Assembly (NCBI GenBank): GCA_017649945.1
Contig: JAGCFU010000080.1
Location: 220 to 64,219 of the forward strand
From: Bacteroidales bacterium
Lineage (GTDB): Bacteria; Bacteroidota; Bacteroidia; Bacteroidales; F082
DNA: 64,000 nt
Direction of reading: 5' to 3'
The notes below the pieces were generated by a model. That model saw only the letters and a list, made by a program, of their open reading frames with translations, had not been told where the DNA came from and searched no databases. Of this stretch, positions 30,874 through 46,046 are shown piece by piece. The position numbers and the translations under genes were made by a program. The number at the start of each line of letters is the position of its first letter. Position 1 is the first letter of the stretch.

Positions 30874-31455
30874 TTACAAAATTGATAAAATTATCTCTTT
30901 CCCGATTTCCATTTTTGAGAAAGCGAACATTCTTTTTCCTAAATCTTTTAATGAAGCCCCGATGTGATATACTTCATTGTCAATAATCATAAATCTGTCA
31001 TGAGATTTATTGAACTGCTCAATGTTTATTGGCTGATACTGGGAATTGTGCTTTTTTAAATCCAGTTTAAGATTTTCAGAAATATGAGCTGTGTAGATTG
31101 TAGCGGAAACGTTGTCTTCTCGTTTGTTTAGAATTTTTAGAACCGAATCATCAACATAATTATCAATTAGTATAATTTCGTTCTTTGCTTTTCTTACTAA
31201 ATCAGAGATGAAGTTGTAGGCATCAAATATTTGTCCATCAAGTCGAACTACCGAGAAATTCTCGGAGGTTGAATCGGAGTCAATTTCATGTTCTTCATAA
31301 ATGTTTTTTAGATGTAAACTTATATTGTCTGTTGAACAGTCAAACAATATGGCCATTTGTGTTTGTGTCAGCCACACTGTTTCATCAGAAACCTTAACTT
31401 CAAGTTTAACGTTACTACTCTCTGTTTTGTAAACAACAACATTGTGATTATCCAT
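30874..31455 (-). CDS. RhuM-like N-terminus fused to a C-terminal domain seen on Bacteroidales ORF6N-type proteins (R-M-associated DNA-binding protein)
   Basis: N-terminus VVVYKTESSNVKLEVKVSDETVWLTQTQMAILF...LHLKNIYEE. C-terminus LIDNYVDDSVLKIL...SHDRFMIIDNEVYHIGASLKDLGKRMFAFSKM. The gene is AT-rich. Confidence 0.55.
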   Translation of the reverse strand: MDNHNVVVYKTESSNVKLEVKVSDETVWLTQTQMAILFDCSTDNISLHLKNIYEEHEIDSDSTSENFSVVRLDGQIFDAYNFISDLVRKAKNEIILIDNYVDDSVLKILNKREDNVSATIYTAHISENLKLDLKKHNSQYQPINIEQFNKSHDRFMIIDNEVYHIGASLKDLGKRMFAFSKMEIGKEIILSIL

Positions 31456-31621: not shown

Positions 31622-31798
31622 GGCCCCCGCTGCAGCCGTCCTAAGGCGGTGATCCTCATGGCGGGGAGTGCTTTCTGCTGAAAGCAAACGACTGGGCGCC
31701 CCGTCTTGAGTATCATCCGCTTAGTCCGGCTTTTAGGCCCTCGCTGCCCCGCAATCGGGCCGGGCCCCCGCGCCGCGAAGCGAAGTGGGGGCGAAGCC
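31622..31798 (-). repeat. GC-rich structured repeat, left copy (inverted relative to 43855..44030)
   Basis: Its reverse complement aligns end to end with 43855..44030, roughly four-fifths identical by eye. Several differences are paired across predicted helices. Confidence 0.85.
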
Positions 31799-33410: not shown

Positions 33411-35664
33411 AATAAGTTCATTTTTAAAAGATCTTATTGGACGAGAATTGATAACTGATGAATTCGTGGCAGTTTTCGAATTGGTTAAGAATTCTTTTGA
33501 TGCACATGCAAAAAAAGTAAAAGTTATTTTTGAAAATCAATATGACCCTACAAACGCCAGAATCATTATTTGGGACAATGGACGAGGAATGGACAAATCA
33601 GATTTACAAAACAAATGGTTATTTGTTGCGCATTCTGATAAAAGGGATGGAACGGAAGACAAAGATTACAGAGATAAAATCCAACACAAACGCACTTTTG
33701 CCGGAGCTAAAGGTGTTGGTCGCTTCTCTTGTGATAGATTAGGAAGATATTTAAATCTTATCTCAATTAAAGACGCACCTAATGCTTTAATAGAGAATCT
33801 CAAGATAGATTGGACTTCTTTTGAACAAGACTCCAACAAGGAATTCATAGATATTAAAGTTGAACATAATACTTTATCAGCAACAAACTATGAAGATTTT
33901 CATCAAGGAACTATTTTAGAGATCTCGGGGCTGCGAGATATATGGGATAGAGATAGGATTAAGAAATTGAAAGTATCATTAGAAAAGCTTATTAATCCAA
34001 TTCAAGGGAATGATGTTGACGATTTTGCTATTGAGATTATTGCTGACGATGAGTTATTACAAGATCAGAAAGAAAAAGATGATAGAGACAAGGTTAATGG
34101 TGTTGTTCGAAATATTGTCTTTGAGCGTTTGGGATTAAAGACAACACAAATTAAAGTGAGTATTACAAATCATGGTGGAACAATCACAACAACATTAACA
34201 GACAGAGGCACAGAGATATATACTTTAACAGAACGCAATCCATATGACAAATTATATGATATAGATATTGTATTGTTTGTTTTAAATAGAGCTGGAAAAA
34301 TCAACTTCAAAAAAATAATGGGTGTTGATTCCGTTAAATACGGGTCTGTCTTTATTTACAAGAATGGTTTCCGCATATATCCTTTTGGAGAGGAAGGTGA
34401 TGACACCTTGCAAATAGACCGACGCAAGCAACAAGGTTTCTATCGTTATTTGGGAACCCGTGATTTATTGGGACGTATTGAGATTAATGGCGAACGTTCT
34501 GATTTAAGAGAAACCACTAGTCGAGACGGTGGATTTATTAAAAATGAATCATGGAATCAGTTAGTTGAGTTTTTCTATGACAAAGCTTTACGCCGTCTTG
34601 AAACTTATACTGTGGGCATCATTAAATGGGGTGATGAAAAGTTTGACAAGGAAACTGGTGAAATTATTCAACCAGAACTAAAGCCCGAAGACGTTAAAGA
34701 CAAAATATTGGACATTATTTCTAATCTGACAAAAGCCAAAGAGGTAATAGATGTTCAATATAATCAGGATTTTTTAAAAATCTATGAATCTAAACAAGAA
34801 AAAAGCGCCACTCAACTTGTGAAAAATCTCACCCGCATGGCTGAAGAGACAAATAATCCACAATTTGTCAAACAAGCGAAAGCTGTAGAGAAACAAGTTA
34901 GCGAGATGAGACAATCCATTGGCGAACTTGAACGGGATAATGCCACCAAAACTGAAGAGAATAAAAATATTAAAAAAACTGTATCGCAATTACAAACAGA
35001 AAATTTATTCTTGATATCGGATGTCACAAATGATACCAAAGAGTTTAAAAGTTTGCATCATCACATCACGCACACTTCTGATTTGATTGCTGAATATATT
35101 TCCATTGCTATTGAAGCATTAAGTAAAGGCGACAACAAACGCGTGAAAGAATCGTTGCAATACATAGAAATAGAGAATCAGAAAATTTTGACATTATCCA
35201 ATTTCGTAAGCAAAGCAAAATTTGATACGAAAACAACTAAAATAAACGATGACATTATCAGTTTTGTTTACGAATACATAAACAATCTATATGTAATTAC
35301 TCATAAGAAACTAATTGTCAATGTTGAAAAAGCTTCGTTCAAATTTGTCACAAGGTTTGTGCCAATTGAAATGATAATACTCATTGATAATTTGCTGAAC
35401 AACTCTGAAAAAGCCAAAGCTCAAAATGTTTCGATAAGCTGGGTACTTGAGGAAAGCACCTTGACAATGCATTATGCTGATGATGGGCACGGCATTAAGC
35501 AAGAAGTTTTGCCACATGTATTTGAATACCGTTTTTCCACTACTAACGGAGGTGGTTTAGGATTGTATTATGTGAAAGAAATAGTTAACAAGATGAAAGG
35601 CTCGGTCCAAATTGATAACAGCAAGTCTAAAGGTGTGGAGTTTATTATAACTTTGAAGAAATGA
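33391..35664 (+). CDS. Cytoplasmic dual-GHKL protein: MORC/HATPase_c_3-like N-terminal ATPase plus a C-terminal histidine-kinase-like module
   Basis: N-terminal Bergerat motifs are ELVKNSFDA, WDNGRGMD and GAKGVGRFS. A coiled coil leads to the His-rich segment SLHHHITHTSDLI (aa 555-567). C-terminal kinase boxes are IDNLLNNSEKA, DDGHGI, VFEYRFST and GGGLGLYYVKEIV. No TM segment is seen. The start overlaps the MTase stop by 20 nt. Confidence 0.75.
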   Translation: MEQMQFKISSFLKDLIGRELITDEFVAVFELVKNSFDAHAKKVKVIFENQYDPTNARIIIWDNGRGMDKSDLQNKWLFVAHSDKRDGTEDKDYRDKIQHKRTFAGAKGVGRFSCDRLGRYLNLISIKDAPNALIENLKIDWTSFEQDSNKEFIDIKVEHNTLSATNYEDFHQGTILEISGLRDIWDRDRIKKLKVSLEKLINPIQGNDVDDFAIEIIADDELLQDQKEKDDRDKVNGVVRNIVFERLGLKTTQIKVSITNHGGTITTTLTDRGTEIYTLTERNPYDKLYDIDIVLFVLNRAGKINFKKIMGVDSVKYGSVFIYKNGFRIYPFGEEGDDTLQIDRRKQQGFYRYLGTRDLLGRIEINGERSDLRETTSRDGGFIKNESWNQLVEFFYDKALRRLETYTVGIIKWGDEKFDKETGEIIQPELKPEDVKDKILDIISNLTKAKEVIDVQYNQDFLKIYESKQEKSATQLVKNLTRMAEETNNPQFVKQAKAVEKQVSEMRQSIGELERDNATKTEENKNIKKTVSQLQTENLFLISDVTNDTKEFKSLHHHITHTSDLIAEYISIAIEALSKGDNKRVKESLQYIEIENQKILTLSNFVSKAKFDTKTTKINDDIISFVYEYINNLYVITHKKLIVNVEKASFKFVTRFVPIEMIILIDNLLNNSEKAKAQNVSISWVLEESTLTMHYADDGHGIKQEVLPHVFEYRFSTTNGGGLGLYYVKEIVNKMKGSVQIDNSKSKGVEFIITLKK

Positions 35665-36608
35665 GAATAAAATATAAGATACTCTGGGTAGATGATCGCA
35701 AGGATGAGTTCGAAAGGTTGTCTTATGATAAACGGATTATTGAATATGTCAAGAATCTGTTTTTCGAACCGCACTTAACATTCTGTGAGAATGTCGAGGA
35801 AGCTAAAGACATAATTAGTCATAATCATTTTGATGTCATTTTTTCAGATTATAACATCAATGATGGATCTTCCGGAGAGCAAGGAGACGGATTTATTTCA
35901 TATATTCGTTCCAGAAATGTGAATACTGAGGTGCTGTTTTATTCTGCCATGAAGGAATTGCCCACTTTAAAATTAAATCGTATAGTCTTTTTCTCGTTGG
36001 CGGGTTTGCAAGATGGTTATCGCAAGTTGTTAGAACAAATGGAAGGGCTCATATATCTCACAACGGAAAAACTACATGATTTGACGGCTCTGCGTGGTCT
36101 TGTTATGGCAGAGGTGAGTGAACTGGATGTCTTAATGGAACAAATCATTTTAGCATATTTCAATTCTCCAGAGAGAATGCGTACATTCCATGACCACATC
36201 ACAGCGAATCGAGAAGAAACTTGGCATAAAATGCTAAATTCTAGTACTCAGTGCGATAAGCAATGTTTTCACATATGGCGTGAAAAAGATCTAACAGAGT
36301 ATGTCAGCAAATTAGATTCTTCACAAAAAGCGCGTGCCATTAACATTGTGCTTTCAGATATTGACTCTGCTCATGCTATTTGTACAGATAGCAAATTTTT
36401 CAAGAACTATGATGATTCTATCATTCTCAATCGGAATAATTTAGCTCACTGCATTAGCGAAAAAGATAAGAATGGAAATGAAATCTTAAAAACATGGAAA
36501 GGAGAGAAAATATACAATGATGAAGAATTCCGCATTATGAGAGCGAATATTATTAAATATCACAACATGTTTACAACATTATTGACTACATTAACCGAAT
36601 CCGAATAA
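35661..36608 (+). CDS. Receiver (REC) domain protein with a HEPN-like C-terminal domain
   Basis: REC features are ILWVDDRKD (acidic pocket), FDVIFSDYNI (putative phospho-Asp D63), VLFYSAMKELP and K98. The C-terminal ~180 aa are helical and carry RNNLAH (R258-H263), which matches HEPN Rx4-6H. There is no HTH. The ATG overlaps the upstream stop (ATGA). Confidence 0.6.
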   Translation: MRIKYKILWVDDRKDEFERLSYDKRIIEYVKNLFFEPHLTFCENVEEAKDIISHNHFDVIFSDYNINDGSSGEQGDGFISYIRSRNVNTEVLFYSAMKELPTLKLNRIVFFSLAGLQDGYRKLLEQMEGLIYLTTEKLHDLTALRGLVMAEVSELDVLMEQIILAYFNSPERMRTFHDHITANREETWHKMLNSSTQCDKQCFHIWREKDLTEYVSKLDSSQKARAINIVLSDIDSAHAICTDSKFFKNYDDSIILNRNNLAHCISEKDKNGNEILKTWKGEKIYNDEEFRIMRANIIKYHNMFTTLLTTLTESE

Positions 36609-36740
36609 AGTATGGTTATAACAATATAATAGATTTTACAGTAAAACGAATAAAAAAGATTATGCATCAATTATGCCTATAGAACATTGCCCAGACCGCG
36701 ATTACTTGGCATATCATAGAGATAGAATTTTTAAAGGGAT

Positions 36741-38378
36741 ATGAAACAAAACATTTTAATGAAGAAAGAACAGACATTAAAACAAAAGGTAGCCGATTTA
36801 ATCGCACGGCATATGATTTGTTATTCCGAACAAGATTGTGCACAGATTCTTGTTGGACTTAATGTTATTTCCTCGTTTAATTTGAATATAGACCATCCAC
36901 AAGCATCGATTAACCTTAATCTTTTCCAAGAATCTTTGGCGAAAATCAATGAAAAAGAATTGAGGAGGCGTGATGAAGGTGTATACTATACCCCAAAAGA
37001 CGCAACAGAATATGTTGTTGCTAACACATACCTTAATTACGTTTGTCCAGACAACGTTCAAGTACATCCCGTTGATAAATGTTTGCAGATACTAACCCAA
37101 ATCAATAGTAGTAAGTTGGTTTGCGCTAAAGTTTTTGACCCAACATGTGGAACAGCCGAATTCTTGTTAAGTGCAATAAATCTAAAGTTGCAGATAATTG
37201 ATTGTGATTCCGATGACGCAATATTAAATCTTGTGTCAACAATATATGGCAACGATATTGCAGAAGAATCCATCTTTTTATCCAAGGTGAGATTGTTCTT
37301 TGCAGTTGTTAAGTTTCTTCAGGACAAGAATAATTCTGTAAGATTAGCAAAGATTTTAAATAAGAACTTCACCTCATTGGATTATATAATTAACCATAAC
37401 ATATCGCCAAAATATGATATAATTGTGGGTAATCCGCCATATGTAGAATACCGCAAATTACCCGTAAAGCCAACCACAAACTATGGAAACACATACGCCG
37501 ATGTTTTGCTAAATTCTATTAATGCAGCAAAGCAAAATGGTGCCTTGGGTTTCGTGATTCCCATATCATTTGTATCCACCGGACGCATGAAAGCTATTCG
37601 TGAGTATTCATATTCAAAGTTAAGCAAAATGTTTTTGCTTAACTTTGCGGATCGTCCTGATTGCTTATTTGATGGCGTTCACCAAAAACTTACAATATTC
37701 TTCGGAATCAAAGGCAGAAATAAATGCTGTGTCTACTCATCCAGTTACTACCATTGGTATAGCGAGGAACGAGATTATTTGCTCAGCAACGCAAGTGTTT
37801 TACCCGTTATTCCTTATGAAAAATACATTCCTAAAATCGGTAATGATTTTGAGCGGAGTATATTTGATAAAATAATGAGTGCTAAAGGGCTGACCTTAGC
37901 GGACATCACATCAGACACAAAAAGCAATACTTTGCTATATCTTAACATGCGTGGATGTTTTTGGATGAAAGCATTCTCTTTTAATCCGGGGTCAAATGAA
38001 TATAAGCAATTCAAAAGCCCGAAGGAAATGCAACCGTATATCCTTGCCATCTTAAATTCCAATCTCTATTTCCTTTATTGGACAATAGTTTCTGATTGTT
38101 GGCATATAACTGGAAAGGAAATATCCGAATTTATCATACCTATTAAAGACGTCAACTTCAAAGCTTTTAGAAATATATACAACAATATTGAAAAAAAATT
38201 AGAGGAAACCAAGAAGTATATCGGTAGCAAACAAACGGCTTATGAGTACAAACATAAAGATTGTAAGCCAGAGATAGACGCTGTTGATGATGCTTTGAAA
38301 GGTATATATAATCTCTCAGATGATGAAGTTGAATATTTAAGAAACTATAAAGTCAAATATAGAACTAGTAATGGCTAA
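36741..38378 (+). CDS. N6-adenine DNA methyltransferase (gamma class, Eco57I/TaqI-like)
   Basis: Motif X GVYYTPKD, motif I VFDPTCGTAEFLL and motif IV VGNPPY. Confidence 0.85.
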   Translation: MKQNILMKKEQTLKQKVADLIARHMICYSEQDCAQILVGLNVISSFNLNIDHPQASINLNLFQESLAKINEKELRRRDEGVYYTPKDATEYVVANTYLNYVCPDNVQVHPVDKCLQILTQINSSKLVCAKVFDPTCGTAEFLLSAINLKLQIIDCDSDDAILNLVSTIYGNDIAEESIFLSKVRLFFAVVKFLQDKNNSVRLAKILNKNFTSLDYIINHNISPKYDIIVGNPPYVEYRKLPVKPTTNYGNTYADVLLNSINAAKQNGALGFVIPISFVSTGRMKAIREYSYSKLSKMFLLNFADRPDCLFDGVHQKLTIFFGIKGRNKCCVYSSSYYHWYSEERDYLLSNASVLPVIPYEKYIPKIGNDFERSIFDKIMSAKGLTLADITSDTKSNTLLYLNMRGCFWMKAFSFNPGSNEYKQFKSPKEMQPYILAILNSNLYFLYWTIVSDCWHITGKEISEFIIPIKDVNFKAFRNIYNNIEKKLEETKKYIGSKQTAYEYKHKDCKPEIDAVDDALKGIYNLSDDEVEYLRNYKVKYRTSNG

Positions 38379-39498
38379 ATATAACGTCATAGATTTGTTT
38401 TCAGGCTGTGGAGGTTTTTCTGTAGGTTTTGAAAGAGCGGGCTATCGTATCATTAAGGCGGTAGAATACGACAAAACAATTGCCGTTTCTTACTCGCATA
38501 ATCATAAGGCAACAATTATGTATGCAGAAGATATAGGAAAGATAGACAATGAAGATCATTTTACATGCGGAGAATCAGATGTAATCATTGGGGGCCCCCC
38601 ATGTCAAGGTTTCTCTATGGCAGGTGCGAGAATTCGTGAAAAAAATGCATTTATGAACGACCCGCGAAACTTTCTTTTTCGTCACTATGTGAACGTTGTC
38701 AAAATAGTTCGTCCAAAAGTATTCTTGTTGGAAAATGTTAAGGGAATCTTGTCAAAAGACAAAGGCGCCATATTCAAAGAGATAGTCAGTGCTTTTAGCA
38801 ACCCTGATAATTTTGAAGGGGATAGATATTATTTGCACTACAAAGTTTGCAAGGCTGTAGAATATGGAGTACCTCAACAACGAGAACGTGTTGTTGTGAT
38901 AGGCGTGCTCAATCACGATTTTAATATAGACGAAGTATTTGAGTTTGCCCGGAGAAATATCCTTAAAAAAGATAAGCACTTCTTTGATGCTGTATCATTG
39001 CGAGATGCAATTTCTGATTTAGGTCACCCGACAATTGATGGCATTACGGAATTACAACCTTGTCAATCCAGGTATCAAGAATTCTTGCGTGAGGGGTGCG
39101 ATAAAACTTCAAATCACATAGCATCTAAACATAATGCAATTGCTATTAACCGGATGCAACATATTGAAGTGGGACAAAACTGGGAAGTATTAAATGAAGA
39201 TATCCACTCTGTGCATAGCGGTGCATATGGTCGATTGGCATGGGACAAGCCAACTATGACAATAACAACTCGTTTTGATACACCAGCTGGAGGAAGATTT
39301 ATTCATCCGGTAGAAAATAGGACTCTAACGCCGCGCGAAGCTGCCCGCATACAGTCTTTCCCTGACAGTTTTGAGTTCTTAGGAAATAAAACAATTGTTT
39401 GTAGACAAATAGGAAATGCGGTACCACCGAAAATGGCATACTTTTTAGCAAATGTAGTAAAACATATATTTTATGAATATGGGAAAACTAAGCGATGA
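38371..39498 (+). CDS. DNA (cytosine-5)-methyltransferase (second copy, different TRD)
   Basis: Motifs DLFSGCGGFSVG, GGPPCQGFS, ENV, QQRER, TPREAARIQSFPD and GNAVPP. It overlaps the upstream gene by 8 nt. Confidence 0.9.
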   Translation: MAKYNVIDLFSGCGGFSVGFERAGYRIIKAVEYDKTIAVSYSHNHKATIMYAEDIGKIDNEDHFTCGESDVIIGGPPCQGFSMAGARIREKNAFMNDPRNFLFRHYVNVVKIVRPKVFLLENVKGILSKDKGAIFKEIVSAFSNPDNFEGDRYYLHYKVCKAVEYGVPQQRERVVVIGVLNHDFNIDEVFEFARRNILKKDKHFFDAVSLRDAISDLGHPTIDGITELQPCQSRYQEFLREGCDKTSNHIASKHNAIAINRMQHIEVGQNWEVLNEDIHSVHSGAYGRLAWDKPTMTITTRFDTPAGGRFIHPVENRTLTPREAARIQSFPDSFEFLGNKTIVCRQIGNAVPPKMAYFLANVVKHIFYEYGKTKR

Positions 39499-41257
39499 AA
39501 AACTCGCCAAATTGAAAACCTTGGATAGTCAAGGAGGATTTTGGTATATCACAAAGCAAAATCTAGTATTTCGAGATTTATGCTTTATGGCAAAAATTCT
39601 TGAGGCATGGGATGACCGTAAGGAGGAGAATTATGAAAGTTTCTTTAATAAGCACAAGATTCTTCCTGATTTTGGTGCTTTTGATCCCCTTATTGCTCAT
39701 CGTGCTACAAAAAATTGTGAATACATCGGATTGACTGTGCCTTCTGAAAAATACAGTGCACAAAATTTGACTCCGTTCTATTTCGCGCTAAAGAAGTTGT
39801 GTGGAGGCGATTTTAACCAATTGTCTTCTTATCCTCAAATTATTGATAAACAATTGGAACGGATGTTTATTGATTCGCGTACAAATAAAACATATACTAC
39901 TAATTTTCAAATTTGCCCATTTATGTTTTTGTTCAAAGTTTTGCTCCTTATAGGAGATATTACAAAATCGTATAAAATTTCGACAGCAGAATTTAAGCTG
40001 TTTGTTGCAACTGCACAGAGTTGGAATGAATACTTTGAAGTTGTAGAATCTATTTTAAGATATAGAACCGACGCGGATTTCCAAGCACAATGCAATAAGA
40101 ACAACACAAAAGTTAGCGATGTTCGTTACAATATATTAGCTCAAAATCATTCTCAGCTTGCAGTTACAAGTAGCGATATAGCTATATTGGAAAATGAAGT
40201 TAGAAATGTACGTAGAAAAGTAGCAGAATATGAATTAAGTGAAAGAGTTCAATCTGCAGAAGAAATTTTTACAGCGGGTTCTTTTGTTGAAAAAACATTC
40301 CAGAAAATATATTACGGTGCTCCTGGAACCGGCAAAAGCCACGAAGTAAAAAAGCAAACTGAAGAATTGTTGGATAGTGGCGAAGAAAGAGACTTGCCCA
40401 ATGTTTTCCGCACCACTTTCCATCCTGATACGGATTATGCTTCTTTCGTGGGATGTTATAAGCCTACCATGAAACCGACATCCAAAGAGGAAAAGACTCT
40501 CACCGGCAAAGATGAAGAGATAGTATATGAATTTGTTCCGCAGGTCTTTACAGATGCGTACGTTTATGCGTATAATAATTCCGACCAACCGACCTACTTG
40601 GTTATAGAGGAAATCAACCGTGGTAACTGTGCACAGATATTTGGCGACCTGTTCCAGCTATTGGACAGAAACGGAGGCGTTTCCGAATATAAAATCAAAG
40701 CAGACAAAGACTTGGCGCTATACCTCCGTGACAAATTGGATGCAGACTCCCAAGGCATCCAAGACGGAAAACTATGCTTGCCTGCCAACCTGCATATCCT
40801 TGCCACCATGAACACCTCCGACCAGAGTCTGTTCCCTATGGACAGCGCCTTCAAACGCCGTTGGGAATGGGAATACGTGCCCATCAATTATGACACAACC
40901 ATCAAATCGGGCGAGTTTGAAGTTACCATCGGTGACAAGTCCTATTCATGGGTTGTATTTATCAAGCAAGTGAACGAGAAGATCTTCGACCTTACCCAAA
41001 GCGAAGACAAACAAATGGGTAACTTTTTCATCAAACAATCCATTGATGAAAAAGGGTTCAAGAGCAAAGTGATGTTCTACCTTTGGTACGAAGTGCTACG
41101 TGACGAAACGGAAAACAACAAATACTTCTTCTACAAGAAAACTATCGTTGACGGCAAAGAAGTGTCAAGCAAATTCACATTTAAAGACCTATTCGGAGAT
41201 AAAGCGACGGAGACATTGCAGCAGTTCATGGATTACTTGAAGGTTGACCCTAAATGA
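39473..41257 (+). CDS. McrB-like AAA+ GTPase restriction subunit (LlaJI R1-like) with an unassigned ~270-aa N-terminal domain
   Basis: Walker A GAPGTGKSH, then FHPDTDYASFVG, VIEEINRGN, ATMNTSDQS (McrB NTAD-like) and AFKRRWEW. Confidence 0.85.
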   Translation: MNMGKLSDEKLAKLKTLDSQGGFWYITKQNLVFRDLCFMAKILEAWDDRKEENYESFFNKHKILPDFGAFDPLIAHRATKNCEYIGLTVPSEKYSAQNLTPFYFALKKLCGGDFNQLSSYPQIIDKQLERMFIDSRTNKTYTTNFQICPFMFLFKVLLLIGDITKSYKISTAEFKLFVATAQSWNEYFEVVESILRYRTDADFQAQCNKNNTKVSDVRYNILAQNHSQLAVTSSDIAILENEVRNVRRKVAEYELSERVQSAEEIFTAGSFVEKTFQKIYYGAPGTGKSHEVKKQTEELLDSGEERDLPNVFRTTFHPDTDYASFVGCYKPTMKPTSKEEKTLTGKDEEIVYEFVPQVFTDAYVYAYNNSDQPTYLVIEEINRGNCAQIFGDLFQLLDRNGGVSEYKIKADKDLALYLRDKLDADSQGIQDGKLCLPANLHILATMNTSDQSLFPMDSAFKRRWEWEYVPINYDTTIKSGEFEVTIGDKSYSWVVFIKQVNEKIFDLTQSEDKQMGNFFIKQSIDEKGFKSKVMFYLWYEVLRDETENNKYFFYKKTIVDGKEVSSKFTFKDLFGDKATETLQQFMDYLKVDPK

Positions 41258-43332
41258 AAATACTCATTGAGCAATACGGCTACGACAAGGGCAGGTTGAG
41301 TTCCATACTCGACCCACACTATTTCACTGAACTGCGTGACGGGAAAGCCAAGATACCCTATGTGGGTTATTTCCTGTCGCACAAGATTCCGGACATGGTG
41401 TTTATCCTGCCGAAAGTATTCATCATCGAAGGCAAAGCCTTTGGTGAATACGATCCGGAAGAGATTATCGACTTCGAGCAACTCAAGCCGGAGCACAAAG
41501 CCAATGTGTTCAGCCTTTCGGTATGGATATATCGCGCCATCAAACTCTATTTCCAACACAAAGACAAGATAGGAGAGGAATCGGAGATATTGCAGAACGT
41601 GGTTTCTCACCAAGGTCCGAGAAGCGAGACAATGATAGATATTGTGCTTTCTCTGCTGAAGTTTGACAAAGAGCACAAGAACCTGTTTGCCTATATCACC
41701 CGCCTCAAGCACTCCGGACAAAACAAAATCCATTGGCAGAAAACAATCTCCCGGACACAGGCACTCATCCAAAACGGTGTACCTATTTACCTCCAACCGC
41801 ACACCAAACAGAAAGACATTAACTTCGATGAAGAGCTGATTGTACTGTTTTACTCAGTACTGAACTATCTCGCTCAGGAATTCAAGTTCAATGTGCGTCC
41901 GGCATTTGGGTACGACTTACTCAAACCCGAGACCATCCAATCCATGATAGACAGTGGGAAAGGCGTTCATGTGCTCCGTCAAAACCGCCGCAAGTACTTC
42001 ACGGACGAGATGGTACAGTTGTGGAACCTACTCTTCACCTTCTTCGAGCAATCCCAATATGTCCAAAGCAAAGATAATGACGACGAACAAGCTATGCTGG
42101 TTCGCGAGTTCAACCTTGTCTTTGAAGATATGATTGACTCACTCATCGGCGATAGTGATATATCAGGAGGACTGAAAGAGCAAAAAGATGGTAAAATCAT
42201 CGACCATATCTACCGCGATAATGCACTGATAGAAGATAAGAAACAAATCTATTTCATTGGTGACAGCAAATATTACAAGGATGACAACGACATCGGTCCG
42301 AATTCTATCTACAAGCAGTTCACATACGCCAAGAACGTCATCCAGTACAATATTGATTTCTTCAACAGCAGGCCTCAAGAGTTTGAGGCGGAGAACCTGC
42401 AATATCGGGATAACACTACCGAAGGCTACAACATCACCCCGAACTTCTTTATTCGAGGTCACCTGCAAGCCGGGCAACTGAATGACTACAGCAATGCTAA
42501 TTTGAAATTGGAGAAGATGAATGATGGTAAGAGCCATAGGATTTCGTACCATTTTGAGAATCGGCTCTTTGACCGTGACACGCTGATTTTGCAAACGTAT
42601 AGCATTAATTTCCTGTTTGTGCTGGCTTGTTATGTGCAAGGGGCAGGCGAGCACACACAAGAAATCAGAAGTATATTCCGTGAAAATATCAAGAAGGTTC
42701 TTCAATTGCAATATGGTTTCTTTGCCATCAAGCCGAGAGTTCATGACGAGACAGAGCAGTTCTTGCATGACAATTTTCAACAGGTGCTTGGCAAAGTATT
42801 TGCACCGTATGGTGGTTCGACCAATTGCATGACTTTAGCTTTAGATAATGATGCTGATAATACGGAAACACTTGCGCTGATAGATAAGTATTTTTACAGG
42901 AAACCTATTCCAAATAATCAACTGGATGTAAAACCGGATACATTGTTTGACACTGACGAGCAGACGATTATGCATGCTGTGGAACTTTCGGTGGATATGC
43001 ATGATAAATGTGTCATTACGGCACTTGTCAGAAAAGATGACAAGAGTTTTGACAAATTTAATATCGGAGGAGCTAAAGAATATGTCATGGAGTCGATTCC
43101 GGCTGTTAGTTTATGGAGCATCAAATACTTAATGCCGATGGCCTCATATGATTTTATTGGATATTATGAGGTGACGGACATAAAGTTTAATCCAATGACA
43201 AAAAGATTGCGGTTCATGTTGGGGCAGTTCTTCCCGTTGGGCGATTTACCGGTTAACGTGGCTGGGAAAATGAGGCACGGTGAATTGATTAACCTTGAAT
43301 ACGTACAAAAATTATATAACAAGGAAATATAA
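41254..43332 (+). CDS. LlaJI/McrC-like restriction endonuclease subunit
   Basis: 692 aa. The ATGA overlap with the McrB-like gene suggests translational coupling. The PD-(D/E)xK-like block is IIDHIY...(x)...YFIGDSKYYKD (D317, D337-S-K339). Confidence 0.65.
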   Translation: MKILIEQYGYDKGRLSSILDPHYFTELRDGKAKIPYVGYFLSHKIPDMVFILPKVFIIEGKAFGEYDPEEIIDFEQLKPEHKANVFSLSVWIYRAIKLYFQHKDKIGEESEILQNVVSHQGPRSETMIDIVLSLLKFDKEHKNLFAYITRLKHSGQNKIHWQKTISRTQALIQNGVPIYLQPHTKQKDINFDEELIVLFYSVLNYLAQEFKFNVRPAFGYDLLKPETIQSMIDSGKGVHVLRQNRRKYFTDEMVQLWNLLFTFFEQSQYVQSKDNDDEQAMLVREFNLVFEDMIDSLIGDSDISGGLKEQKDGKIIDHIYRDNALIEDKKQIYFIGDSKYYKDDNDIGPNSIYKQFTYAKNVIQYNIDFFNSRPQEFEAENLQYRDNTTEGYNITPNFFIRGHLQAGQLNDYSNANLKLEKMNDGKSHRISYHFENRLFDRDTLILQTYSINFLFVLACYVQGAGEHTQEIRSIFRENIKKVLQLQYGFFAIKPRVHDETEQFLHDNFQQVLGKVFAPYGGSTNCMTLALDNDADNTETLALIDKYFYRKPIPNNQLDVKPDTLFDTDEQTIMHAVELSVDMHDKCVITALVRKDDKSFDKFNIGGAKEYVMESIPAVSLWSIKYLMPMASYDFIGYYEVTDIKFNPMTKRLRFMLGQFFPLGDLPVNVAGKMRHGELINLEYVQKLYNKEI

Positions 43333-43847
43333 TGACCGACCACTTCACCCCAATCCAACGGCACCTTGTGATGTCACACATCCGCAGCCGTAACACTAAA
43401 CCCGAGCTGAAGGTGCGCAAATGGCTTTGGTCTCATGGCTATCGCTATCGTCTTAACGTAAAAGGAGTTCCTGGCAAGCCAGACATCGTAATGCGTCGTT
43501 ATCGCACTGCAATCTTTGTTAATGGTTGCTTCTGGCATGGTCATGAGGGATGTGAGAAGTTCAAGATGCCGAAAACAAATGTCGAGTTTTGGGAGGCGAA
43601 AATACGGAGAAATAGAGAACGAGACTGTCAAAACTATCAGATTTTAAAGGAAAACGGATGGCAAGTACTTGTGCTTTGGGAGTGCGAGCTTACAAAGAAG
43701 TCGTTTGAAGCAACTATGCAGAAAGTGGAAGTGATGCTGCATGATTATTGCTTGAAGACTATAAGTCCCAAGGTTAAAGAATATATTAGAGTGGATGAAG
43801 ATGCCATTCAGATGGCAGCTGAAGCAGAAGCTGATTATGGAGATTAA
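43332..43847 (+). CDS. vsr: Very short patch repair endonuclease
   Basis: Contains TKPELKVRKWLWSHGYRYRLN...PGKPDIVMRRYRTAIFVNGCFWHGH, the diagnostic Vsr core. Confidence 0.9.
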   Translation: MTDHFTPIQRHLVMSHIRSRNTKPELKVRKWLWSHGYRYRLNVKGVPGKPDIVMRRYRTAIFVNGCFWHGHEGCEKFKMPKTNVEFWEAKIRRNRERDCQNYQILKENGWQVLVLWECELTKKSFEATMQKVEVMLHDYCLKTISPKVKEYIRVDEDAIQMAAEAEADYGD

Positions 43848-43854
43848 CTCTCTT

Positions 43855-44030
43855 GGCTTCGCCCCACGTCGCTTCGCGGTGCGGGGGCTCGGCCCGAATC
43901 GCGGGGCAGCGATGGCCAAAGAGCCAGGCTAAGGCGCTGATTCTCAAGTGGGGCGCCCGGTCGTTTGTTTTCGTAAGAAAACACTACCCACGCTGAGAAT
44001 CACAGCCTTAGACCGGCTGCAGCGGGGGCC
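43855..44030 (+). repeat. GC-rich structured repeat, right copy
   Basis: Begins 8 nt after the vsr stop and aligns with the reverse complement of 31622..31798. Confidence 0.85.
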
Positions 44031-44054
44031 GATTATTCGGGCCTTGATTTTTTG

Positions 44055-44829: not shown

Positions 44830-44837
44830 TACCTTTG
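44830..44837 (+). promoter_or_regulatory. -7 promoter box (TACCTTTG) for the Fic gene
   Basis: Matches TAnnTTTG 25 nt upstream of the ATG at 44862. Confidence 0.45.
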
Positions 44838-44861
44838 CAAAGACAACATTTAGCATTTATA

Positions 44862-46046
44862 ATGTCTGACAATCATCCATATCTGAACTTCGATGAGTAC
44901 ATCCGGCAAGGGGAGCCGTCGCAAAAAGAGAAGGCTCTGAACTGGGAGACTGCTATTGGCTTGCAGGCCGTAGACGGACTTCGTGTGTCGGATTATCTGC
45001 GAGAGACCGCACAAAAGCACATCGAAGGGGAGATATCGTCAGATGATGTAAAACGGCGCATCAGAGAGTATTATCAAACCAAAACCAAACGCGAACCGGA
45101 CGACGATGAGCACCAGGAAGCGGATAGCGTGTCGAGCAACATCCAGGAAATACTGGCGACAAACACTCTCGATTTTTCAGTCAGAGGCTATATGGCCTTA
45201 CATCGAAAAATTTTTGACGGTGTTTTCAAACATGCTGGCCAACTGCGTAAATGTGACATCTCCAAAAAGGAATGGGTGCTTGAATGGGATACAGTCGATT
45301 ATCTGTTTTGGCAAGATTTGCACCGCGCTTTGGAATACGATATCGCAAAAGAACGCGAATTCAGCTACAAAGGCATCTCTAAGGATGATCTGATAAAGCA
45401 TGTCGCCAGATTTACTTCTGATCTTTGGCAAATCCATGCTTTCGGCGAAGGCAACACCCGAACAACTGCGGTTTTCATTATCCAGTATCTGCGGTCGTTG
45501 GGTTTTGAAGTGACTAACGATATGTTTGCCAAGCATTCTTGGTATTTTCGCAACGCTCTCGTTCGTGCTAATTACAAAAGCGCGGTGAAAGGCATTGATT
45601 ATTCTCCAATTTATTTGGAAAGATTCTTCCGCAACCTGCTTCTCGGCGAGCAATGGGATATGCGGAACCGCTATCTGCATATTCATCCTACAGTAGAATG
45701 GAGAATACAGCCAAATTTGGCAGACCCCACAAGTATCCCCACAAGTAAGGAACAAACACCCATCAAGCACACATCAAGCACCCATCAAGTTGTGAACAAG
45801 TTTCATACAAAGAATCAGAATATAATAGATCTGATAAAAATTGTAGGGGATGAGGGAATCTCAGTTAAAAATATGATGGTAAGGATTGGGTTAAAAGATC
45901 GTGTGAACTTTATGAATCTTTATCTGAATCCAGCCATTGCCGAAGGTTATATTCGAATGTTATATCCAGATAAACCACACCATCCTCGCCAGAAATACCT
46001 CCTCACAGTGAAAGGATTGTCGCTTTACAAAGAAATTACAAGATAA
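44862..46046 (+). CDS. Fic/DOC-family protein with an N-terminal VbhA-like segment and a C-terminal wHTH-like region
   Basis: The Fic motif variant HAFGEGNTRTTA lies at 45435..45470. The canonical form is HxFx(D/E)GNGRxxR, so G is replaced by T and the last R by A. The start is moved to ATG 44862 because the listed start is a TTG inside the promoter box. Confidence 0.75.
   Translation: MSDNHPYLNFDEYIRQGEPSQKEKALNWETAIGLQAVDGLRVSDYLRETAQKHIEGEISSDDVKRRIREYYQTKTKREPDDDEHQEADSVSSNIQEILATNTLDFSVRGYMALHRKIFDGVFKHAGQLRKCDISKKEWVLEWDTVDYLFWQDLHRALEYDIAKEREFSYKGISKDDLIKHVARFTSDLWQIHAFGEGNTRTTAVFIIQYLRSLGFEVTNDMFAKHSWYFRNALVRANYKSAVKGIDYSPIYLERFFRNLLLGEQWDMRNRYLHIHPTVEWRIQPNLADPTSIPTSKEQTPIKHTSSTHQVVNKFHTKNQNIIDLIKIVGDEGISVKNMMVRIGLKDRVNFMNLYLNPAIAEGYIRMLYPDKPHHPRQKYLLTVKGLSLYKEITR

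Follow-up and report, generated by a model that had tools for sequence, protein, structure and literature searches.

What does a response regulator control when its receiver domain is followed neither by a DNA-binding domain nor by another of the standard outputs? The question is raised by a gene in a 64,000-nucleotide stretch of a Bacteroidales bacterium (assembly GCA_017649945.1, contig JAGCFU010000080.1, positions 220 to 64,219 of the forward strand; hereafter the window), whose product carries an N-terminal receiver (REC) domain and, in its C-terminal half, a short R-N-N-L-A-H motif. A preliminary description considered this gene by itself and proposed a phosphorylation-controlled RNase effector in which a CheY-like receiver is fused to a HEPN-like domain. 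The real unit is a cassette of three co-directional, overlapping genes rather than this single open reading frame (ORF), an operon context that the preliminary description missed. It comprises a 5-methylcytosine (m5C) DNA methyltransferase (gene 1), a kinase (gene 2) and, as the last gene, the REC-HEPN protein (gene 3). We put at roughly 60% the probability that REC-HEPN is the phosphorylation-controlled HEPN RNase effector of a defence cassette, and give the same estimate to the reading of the triad as a methylation-linked defensive two-component system of which gene 3 encodes the effector.

The receiver and the HEPN-like domain of the regulator

The CheY-like receiver proposed for the N-terminus is recovered both by profile searches and by structure prediction. 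Pfam Response_reg (PF00072) aligns with residues 39-102 of the window protein (E=9e-5) with a score of 23.1 bits, below the gathering score of 30.2, which some homologues exceed (e.g. 35.9 bits). At E<=0.01, the same profile is found in all 59 close homologues and in 85 members of a set of 102 distant ones, whose identity to the window protein is 22-33%. A family profile built from the 59-member alignment retrieves solved response-regulator receivers from the PDB (E=7e-7), and profile scans of the window protein and of its homologues also gave weak matches to the cREC receiver family. In the AlphaFold2 model of the full-length protein (mean predicted local distance difference test, pLDDT, 88; predicted template modelling score, pTM, 0.80), five parallel strands (residues 4-10, 36-42, 59-63, 90-95 and 108-112) follow the canonical receiver order. 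Foldseek searches with this model return many receivers (target-normalised TM 0.66-0.74, E down to 9e-5). Against the PDB, the matches (PorX and other regulators) run through the receiver alone and do not inform on the output domain. The fifth receiver helix (119-139) is predicted to run on as a linker toward the HEPN-like domain.

Residues expected of a phosphorylatable receiver are conserved. D58, D63, Y94 and S95 are invariant in the 59-member alignment, and D11 and D12 nearly so. D63 and S95 are each conserved in at least 90% of the 102 distant members, where the acidic pair corresponding to D11/D12 is either E-D or D-D. In the model, D11/D12 lie after strand 1 while D63 and S95 end strands 3 and 4, respectively, a placement that leaves the phospho-acceptor pocket intact.

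The C-terminal region is, as had been predicted, mostly helical, with the addition of one β-hairpin. Its model consists of helix 1 (141-166, carrying the invariant residues R145, G146, E151 and D156), helix 2 (170-190), an insert (191-245), helix 3 (246-262), the β-hairpin (264-278) and helix 4 (287-313). The codons of the motif read exactly R-N-N-L-A-H, and the motif is predicted to close helix 3, where the loop toward helix 4 begins. Two AlphaFold models (pLDDT 88 and 87.6) agree on this arrangement. The HEPN signature has been described as Rx4-6H, in which the residue following R is usually N, D or H, and helices 2 and 3 of HEPN domains are separated by a variable insert (Anantharaman et al. 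2013, PMC3710099). The polar N259 that follows R258, the location of the motif where helix 3 ends and the insert separating helices 2 and 3 in the model all agree with this description.

Pfam finds nothing in the C-terminal 200 residues of the window protein, and the HEPN assignment is made because its homologues, and not the protein itself, match HEPN models. Three homologues with 55-57% identity to the window protein exceed the gathering score of HEPN_RiboL-PSP (PF18735; 28.4 bits) with 28.6, 30.7 and 29.1 bits (P0014, P0020 and P0034, respectively), and a further one (P0117) aligns with positions 20-190 of the 191 positions of this profile. Among the 59 close members, C-terminal matches are to RiboL-PSP (9), HepT-like (4) and MAE_28990 (2); among the 102 distant representatives they are to RiboL-PSP (5) and, once each, to MAE_28990, Abi_2 and Swt1. 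Abi_2 and RiboL-PSP matches also occur in family members derived from genomes. Across approximately 160 family members, the HEPN families are the sole recurrent C-terminal Pfam matches. In agreement with the preliminary description, no helix-turn-helix (HTH), GGDEF or other standard output was detected in the gene 3 product by Pfam and NCBIfam scans.

Across the family, the pattern of the motif is R-N-x-[LF]-A-H. R258, N259, L261 and A262 are invariant in the 59 close homologues and H263 is present in 58 of them, the remaining one having N in its place. In the 102 distant representatives R258 and H263 are still invariant, and N259 is conserved in at least 90%. Of the 79 species-level genome loci, 75 likewise retain RNxxxH, among them loci with as little as 24% identity and two archaeal metagenome-assembled genomes (MAGs). 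Judged from these alignments, the conservation of the motif is far beyond chance. The C-terminal domain is therefore called HEPN-like, an assignment well supported by profiles, motif conservation and predicted topology although fold comparison (see below) did not confirm it.

The insert between helices 2 and 3 includes the residues C198-x3-C202-x-H204 (positions 36252-36272), of which C202 is invariant in the close subfamily. They could form a partial metal site or a redox-sensitive element. A zinc site was considered and rejected: the residues are limited to the close subfamily, lie in the least confident loop of the model and provide three ligands only.

The kinase, the methyltransferase and the distribution of the triad

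Gene 2 encodes a soluble protein that starts with a GHKL ATPase of the paraMORC/MutL type and ends with a DHp and CA core; between the two lie a conserved middle region and a coiled coil. Residues 545-755 align with the whole DHp and CA core of the solved kinases WalK and HK853, and the region of H557 aligns within one residue of the H box of WalK (SHELRTP). Conservation was assessed over 61 orthologues. H557 and I559, the predicted H-x-I of the H box, are conserved in at least 95% of them, as are the N box (N671), the G1 box (D697-x-G-x-G) and the G2 box (G720-G-G-L-G) of the CA domain. The N-terminal module occupies the position usual for a kinase sensor domain, and no Pfam sensor or membrane domain was found in the gene 2 product. 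This N-terminus matches the BbrUII/HgiDII restriction-enzyme family (E=3e-18) and MutL. Its residues E30, N34, D62-x-G64-x-G66 and G105..G110 reach the same level of at least 95%. Since their catalytic residues are conserved, both ATP-binding modules of the protein look active. A kinase with an H-box His and N, G1 and G2 boxes directly upstream of a regulator with conserved phospho-acceptor residues makes the phosphorylation control initially proposed for gene 3 plausible.

Gene 1 carries the catalytic PCQG (C128) and ENV motifs of C-5 cytosine methyltransferases, and its product looks active. It matches Pfam DNA_methylase (E=5.7e-59), NCBIfam dcm (E=3e-47) and PADLOC MTase_II (E=1.4e-80). Genes 1 and 2 overlap by 20 nt, and the ATG of gene 3 overlaps the TGA of gene 2 (ATGA, a 4-nt overlap). 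The three genes form a unit whose translation is coupled. The coordinates of the three genes and of their domains are given in Table 1.

Table 1. Position of the three cassette genes, their domains and predicted catalytic residues in the window
Feature	Position	Strand	Basis
Gene 1, C-5 cytosine DNA methyltransferase, 447 aa	32067..33410	+	Pfam, NCBIfam, PADLOC, motifs
Gene 2, soluble kinase, 757 aa	33391..35664	+	Pfam, NCBIfam, alignment to solved kinases
N-terminal GHKL ATPase module of gene 2, aa 26-157	33466..33861	+	Pfam HATPase_c_3 E=1.2e-24
His557 codon of gene 2, predicted phospho-accepting His (H-x-I, H box)	35059..35061	+	Conservation; codon checked
CA domain of gene 2, aa 662-756	35374..35658	+	Pfam HATPase_c E=1.9e-26
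Gene 3, receiver-HEPN response regulator, 315 aa	35661..36608	+	Single uninterrupted frame
REC domain of gene 3, aa 1-118	35661..36014	+	Pfam, family profile, AlphaFold2, Foldseek
Asp63 codon of gene 3, predicted phospho-acceptor, end of strand 3	35847..35849	+	Conservation; codon checked
HEPN-like domain of gene 3, aa 141-313	36081..36599	+	AlphaFold2; Pfam HEPN matches in homologues; topology as in PMC3710099
R258-N-N-L-A-H263 of gene 3, Rx4H motif, predicted RNase active site	36432..36449	+	Conservation; codons checked

The linkage of the three genes was followed in 79 loci, one per species, from GTDB-derived genomes. The kinase lies directly upstream of the regulator at 76 of them, the other three being cut by contig ends. 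The complete order methylase-kinase-regulator is found at 71 loci. Seven of the other eight are cut by contig ends, which leaves 71 of 72 testable loci, and the sole testable exception (L079) is a truncated copy devoid of the motif. The same triad is present on metagenome contigs of Bacteroides uniformis (P0048) and of a second homologue (P0019). According to the record titles, the loci belong in majority to Bacteroidota, and otherwise to Spirochaetota, Fibrobacterota, Verrucomicrobiota, Bacillota, Cyanobacteria and Melainabacteria, Pseudomonadota, Campylobacterota, Planctomycetota and Patescibacteria, in addition to the two archaeal MAGs.

The family is large. A search of 5.8 billion proteins identified 333 relatives of the gene 3 product of about equal length, and a profile limited to the HEPN domain identified 837 clusters (50% identity, E<=0.001). 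In the best 150 of these 837 clusters, the domain nearly always spans residues ~125-305 in proteins of ~300 residues, which indicates that the receiver-HEPN architecture is fixed. The relatives are labelled "hypothetical protein" in public databases, and the catalogues of defence systems miss them. Effector swapping within the family, raised by tblastn matches ending at residue 163, was rejected as the ORFs retain RNxxxH at 75 of the 79 loci; swapped outputs were met only among kinase relatives that are more distant.

Two such distant relatives are carried by plasmids. On a Bacteroides finegoldii plasmid (L090, 6001-11103), the kinase relative is accompanied by a receiver protein of 209 residues, then by an HNH protein and an N6 methylase. 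On an Enterobacter mori plasmid (L091, 5995-9217), the receiver protein has 357 residues and ends with an unrecognised C-terminal domain of ~230 residues. Neither includes a HEPN domain, and comparison by hhalign of the HEPN-domain profile with a single AbiJ-family protein from the latter locus gave no signal. These outputs fit a conserved sensor with exchangeable effectors.

The genes which follow the triad vary between loci. A McrB-like gene is nevertheless found there in 17 of the 79 loci and a LlaJI-R2-like gene in 11, a recurrence that may exceed mere clustering in defence islands. The triad is also variable internally: at several Bacteroidales loci (in L027-L041), the methylase is 76-86% identical to that of the window whereas the kinase and the regulator are 35-42% and 33-41% identical, respectively. 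Such a contrast suggests modular recombination between methylase genes and kinase/regulator pairs.

The B. uniformis triad (L001-L006) is preceded by a DDE transposase gene and its upstream flanks vary from contig to contig. The protein P0048 is listed in 1023 index blocks (580 contigs of the cluster table). The transposase, the varied flanks and the hundreds of gut metagenome contigs indicate that this version is a mobile element common in human and animal gut metagenomes.

The sequence examined here is found in bovine, sheep and other gut metagenomes. Short contigs from bovine and other gut metatranscriptomes cover genes 2 and 3 (33416-36642), and one of them (35583-35858) crosses the junction between the two genes. 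This is weak evidence for their co-transcription, DNA carry-over being possible.

A proposed relay, its precedents and its alternatives

In class I kinases, the H-box His is autophosphorylated and the phosphoryl group then passes to the receiver Asp. Receiver phosphorylation commonly drives dimerisation, and HEPN RNases generally act as dimers that juxtapose two Rx4H motifs. Together with the residues conserved in genes 2 and 3, this background leads to the following scheme. The methyltransferase would mark the DNA of the host. In an ATP-dependent manner, the GHKL/paraMORC module would detect DNA that is foreign or unmodified, or some other cue of infection, and detection would switch on autophosphorylation of His557. 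The phosphoryl group would be transferred to Asp63 of the receiver, where it would alter the receiver and the long α5 linker such that two HEPN domains pair. The paired domains (R258, N259 and H263) would then act as a metal-independent RNase cutting cellular and/or phage RNA, and growth of the infected cell would stop, as in abortive infection. HEPN RNases have been described as metal-independent (PMC3710099), paraMORC GHKL ATPases operate in restriction systems (PMC2292703), and paraMORC GHKL domains are found directly fused to Ymh-type HEPN domains in restriction-system neighbourhoods (PMC3710099). Restriction-system proteins also include direct fusions of this module to nucleases. A narrower version, in which the GHKL clamp reads the m5C state and signals non-self DNA by His-Asp phosphotransfer to a HEPN domain that is gated by dimerisation and cleaves RNA, would amount to restriction-modification without a DNA nuclease; it is tentative and, in our view, rather doubtful. 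In this version, discrimination of self from non-self by methylation would be coupled directly to abortive infection via a two-component relay, and the bacterial paraMORC ATPases would gain a defined signalling role.

Two validated systems provide precedents. In Detocs (Rousset et al. 2023, bioRxiv 10.1101/2023.01.24.525353), a kinase phosphorylates a receiver fused to a cell-killing effector, resulting in abortive infection. Detocs depends on the His of the kinase as well as on the Asp of the receiver, and its effectors are exchangeable (PNP, REase, TOPRIM or transmembrane). The cassette of the window shares with it the fusion of a receiver to an effector in place of a DNA-binding domain. However, Detocs includes a stand-alone "buffer" receiver, DtcB, and no methyltransferase, whereas the reverse is true here; its list of effectors does not include HEPN, and the kinase of the window has a GHKL ATPase as the module in sensor position. 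Neither gene 2 nor gene 3 was matched by a PADLOC model. Ambrosia (van den Berg et al. 2025, bioRxiv 10.1101/2025.09.30.679545) is an anti-phage cluster of five genes, coding for an XRE regulator, an N6 methylase, a HATPase kinase, a REC protein with a winged HTH and an HNH nuclease, in which the receiver Asp is required for defence. It resembles the triad in associating a DNA methylase, a histidine-kinase/HSP90-like ATPase and a receiver protein. It differs by its N6-adenine rather than C5 methylase, by its XRE gene and separate HNH nuclease, both absent from the window cassette, and by a receiver described with a winged HTH rather than fused to a HEPN-like domain. The B. finegoldii plasmid locus, with its kinase, receiver, HNH and N6 methylase genes, is a look-alike of Ambrosia. 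By analogy, the two precedents make the logic of the cassette credible.

The order of the triad has also been described. Bellieny-Rabelo, Pretorius & Moleleki 2021 (PMC8011034) reported cassettes, tied to paraMORCs and enriched in restriction-modification neighbourhoods, that consist of a C5 methylase, a protein with the succession HATPase_c_3, HEF_HK and HATPase_c, and a Response_reg_2 protein. As in the window, a soluble kinase-like protein stands between the methylase and a receiver-like protein; it begins with HATPase_c_3, ends with HATPase_c and contains a DHp-like helix whose His is conserved. In contrast, HEPN is mentioned 0 times in that work, the regulator is given no output and it has a conserved Lys after strand 5 which the window receiver does not have. 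Neither the Response_reg_2 model (PF19192) nor that for HEF_HK (PF19191) gave a match in the ~170 proteins scanned (the window, the 59 and 102 members and the two plasmid loci), their presence in the library being unverified. The window receiver family matches PF00072 instead, and it may still overlap with the orthologous group of that work.

On the HEPN side, the paraMORC-Ymh fusions and PrrC/RloC (PMC3710099; PMC2292703) likewise associate an ATPase module with a HEPN RNase in restriction-modification neighbourhoods. There the two are on one polypeptide, whereas in the window they are carried by two proteins that a His-Asp phosphotransfer module would connect. Among HEPN families the best match is to HEPN_RiboL-PSP, for which a distant relationship to AbiD/AbiF has been described; it conserves Rx4H, although its prototype is fused to endoRNase L-PSP or found in operons with ParB, and not with a receiver. 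The 2013 HEPN survey (PMC3710099) mentions receivers only in another context. Literature searches for RiboL-PSP with receiver, HEPN with response-regulator output and paraMORC with HEPN retrieved no description of a receiver-HEPN response regulator. Defensive two-component systems and methylase/paraMORC-kinase cassettes are thus already known, and the HEPN output is a new variant, not categorically new.

Several observations weigh against the reading of gene 3 as a phosphorylation-controlled HEPN effector of a defence cassette. The best HEPN match of the window protein itself (MAE_28990, E=0.19) is below significance, as for every HEPN model. The preliminary description had suggested a Foldseek search of the C-terminal region; compared with the PDB and BFVD, the model of this region gave no match at E<=0.001 and hence no significant HEPN match, Csx1 and AbiV ranking 6 and 9 with E of ~1.3-1.4. 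The HEPN-domain profile found no solved relative and nothing significant among PDB sequences. The receiver is atypical as well. No Lys follows strand 5 in the window protein (RIVFFSLAG) and, in its subfamily, helix α4 is replaced by a 12-residue loop. More distant members have α4 restored and a conserved Arg about three residues past strand 5 (consensus DGVYxxxR). Helix α4 belongs to the usual output and dimerisation face of receivers. The output face of this receiver is atypical and, with the Lys and α4 both missing, the coupling may be unusual. At the level of the cassette, neither NCBIfam nor PADLOC has a model for genes 2 and 3, and tblastn of the gene 3 protein against plasmid and phage collections gave no match. 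Finally, in some loci the methylase has diverged far less than the other two genes (at L030, for instance, it is 86% identical to that of the window, against 35% and 39% for the kinase and the regulator), a contrast that speaks against a sequence-specific reader evolving in close step with it.

The alternative that survives best, although unlikely, has the opposite sign: the kinase would keep the receiver in a state which holds the HEPN RNase off in healthy cells, and the RNase would be released when a phage disturbs methylation, the ATP supply or the neighbouring restriction system, as for the PrrC/RloC anticodon nucleases. A PrrC-like logic has been proposed for HEPN domains in restriction-system neighbourhoods, including the paraMORC-HEPN fusions (Anantharaman et al., PMC3710099), and two-component genes have been noted in methylase-associated McrBC operons (Bell et al.). 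A McrB-like gene does follow the triad at 17 of 79 loci, including that of the window. However, the 62 other loci have no such neighbour within the fetched flank, nor does the abundant B. uniformis version, so that the triad appears self-sufficient. Moreover, loss of the receiver Asp in Detocs and Ambrosia abolishes defence and is not toxic.

A purely regulatory role is quite improbable. The signalling proteins would tune the adjacent methylase or restriction genes, with HEPN as a sequence-specific RNA-processing or RNA-binding output rather than a suicide effector. Bellieny-Rabelo et al. (PMC8011034) speculated that a related kinase/regulator pair controls restriction-modification systems, and the authors of Ambrosia favour transcriptional control by their receiver protein. 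Yet the gene 3 product has no DNA-binding domain, the full catalytic Rx4H with its polar N is conserved as in toxic HEPN RNases, and the following genes differ by locus, leaving no constant target besides the triad itself. Least probable of all is a vestigial system, with a pseudo-receiver run by protein contact or a ligand, as proposed for the receiver of CRISPR-associated Cam2, and/or a non-catalytic HEPN binding module: the missing Lys and α4, the Response_reg score under the gathering threshold and the weak cREC matches are in its favour, but the acidic pair, D63, S95 and the kinase His, of a kind usually lost by pseudo-receivers, are conserved family-wide, and R and H of the motif are invariant in 102 distant representatives.

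If the defensive two-component reading of the triad is correct, RNase would be added to the known output classes of response regulators, and the cassette would represent a third architecture among defensive two-component systems, one in which self-marking by DNA methylation is linked to abortive infection. It would also hint at what the bacterial paraMORC ATPases sense. REC-HEPN is small and, with D63 as a clean on/off handle, may serve as a phosphorylation-switchable RNase.

The surrounding island

The cassette sits in a horizontally acquired defence island. GC content is 33-38% in the island and 53% in the flanking housekeeping genes, which code for TamB, a UvrD-like helicase, a tricorn-like protease and ClpB. 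No ORF for an XRE or C-protein was found upstream of the methylase, and promoter and terminator scans performed no better than on shuffled sequence.

Directly downstream of the triad lies a LlaJI-like restriction system (36741-43332, + strand), composed of an N6 methylase (Eco57I/N6_Mtase), a second m5C methylase, a McrB-like AAA_5 GTPase and a LlaJI-R2-like protein. The GTPase has an AlwI-like N-terminal region and an NxxD motif (MNTSD). Bell et al., in their study of CoCoNuT systems, noted in passing that two-component genes are frequent in the NxD branch of methylase-associated McrBC operons, and deferred their analysis. Membership of the window GTPase in this branch was considered and rejected, as its motif reads MNTSD and is thus NxxD. 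An unannotated ORF of 171 residues (43332-43847, + strand) abuts the LlaJI-R2-like gene within the island.

Two inverted copies of an element of ~177 base pairs (bp) (31622-31798, + strand; 43855-44031, - strand) bracket the entire low-GC island, that is the triad, the LlaJI-like system and the 171-residue ORF. The copies are 82-86% identical, strongly structured (fold z-scores -1.9 and -2.9) and have a GC content of ~70%. No Rfam family matches the element, it is absent from the 91 related loci, and no ORF for a transposase or an integrase was noticed in the interval bracketed by the copies. The copies may mark the two ends of a mobile unit or serve as a recombination site. A metatranscriptome contig (depth 18.5) touches the right copy, just beyond which lies a gene for a Fic/DOC protein (44835-46046, + strand). 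To the left of the triad, an ORF of 193 residues (30874-31455, - strand) matches two separate parts of PADLOC PDC-S05 models (through residues 1-75 and 71-191) and has the appearance of a larger defence-candidate protein that was shortened or lost an internal part.

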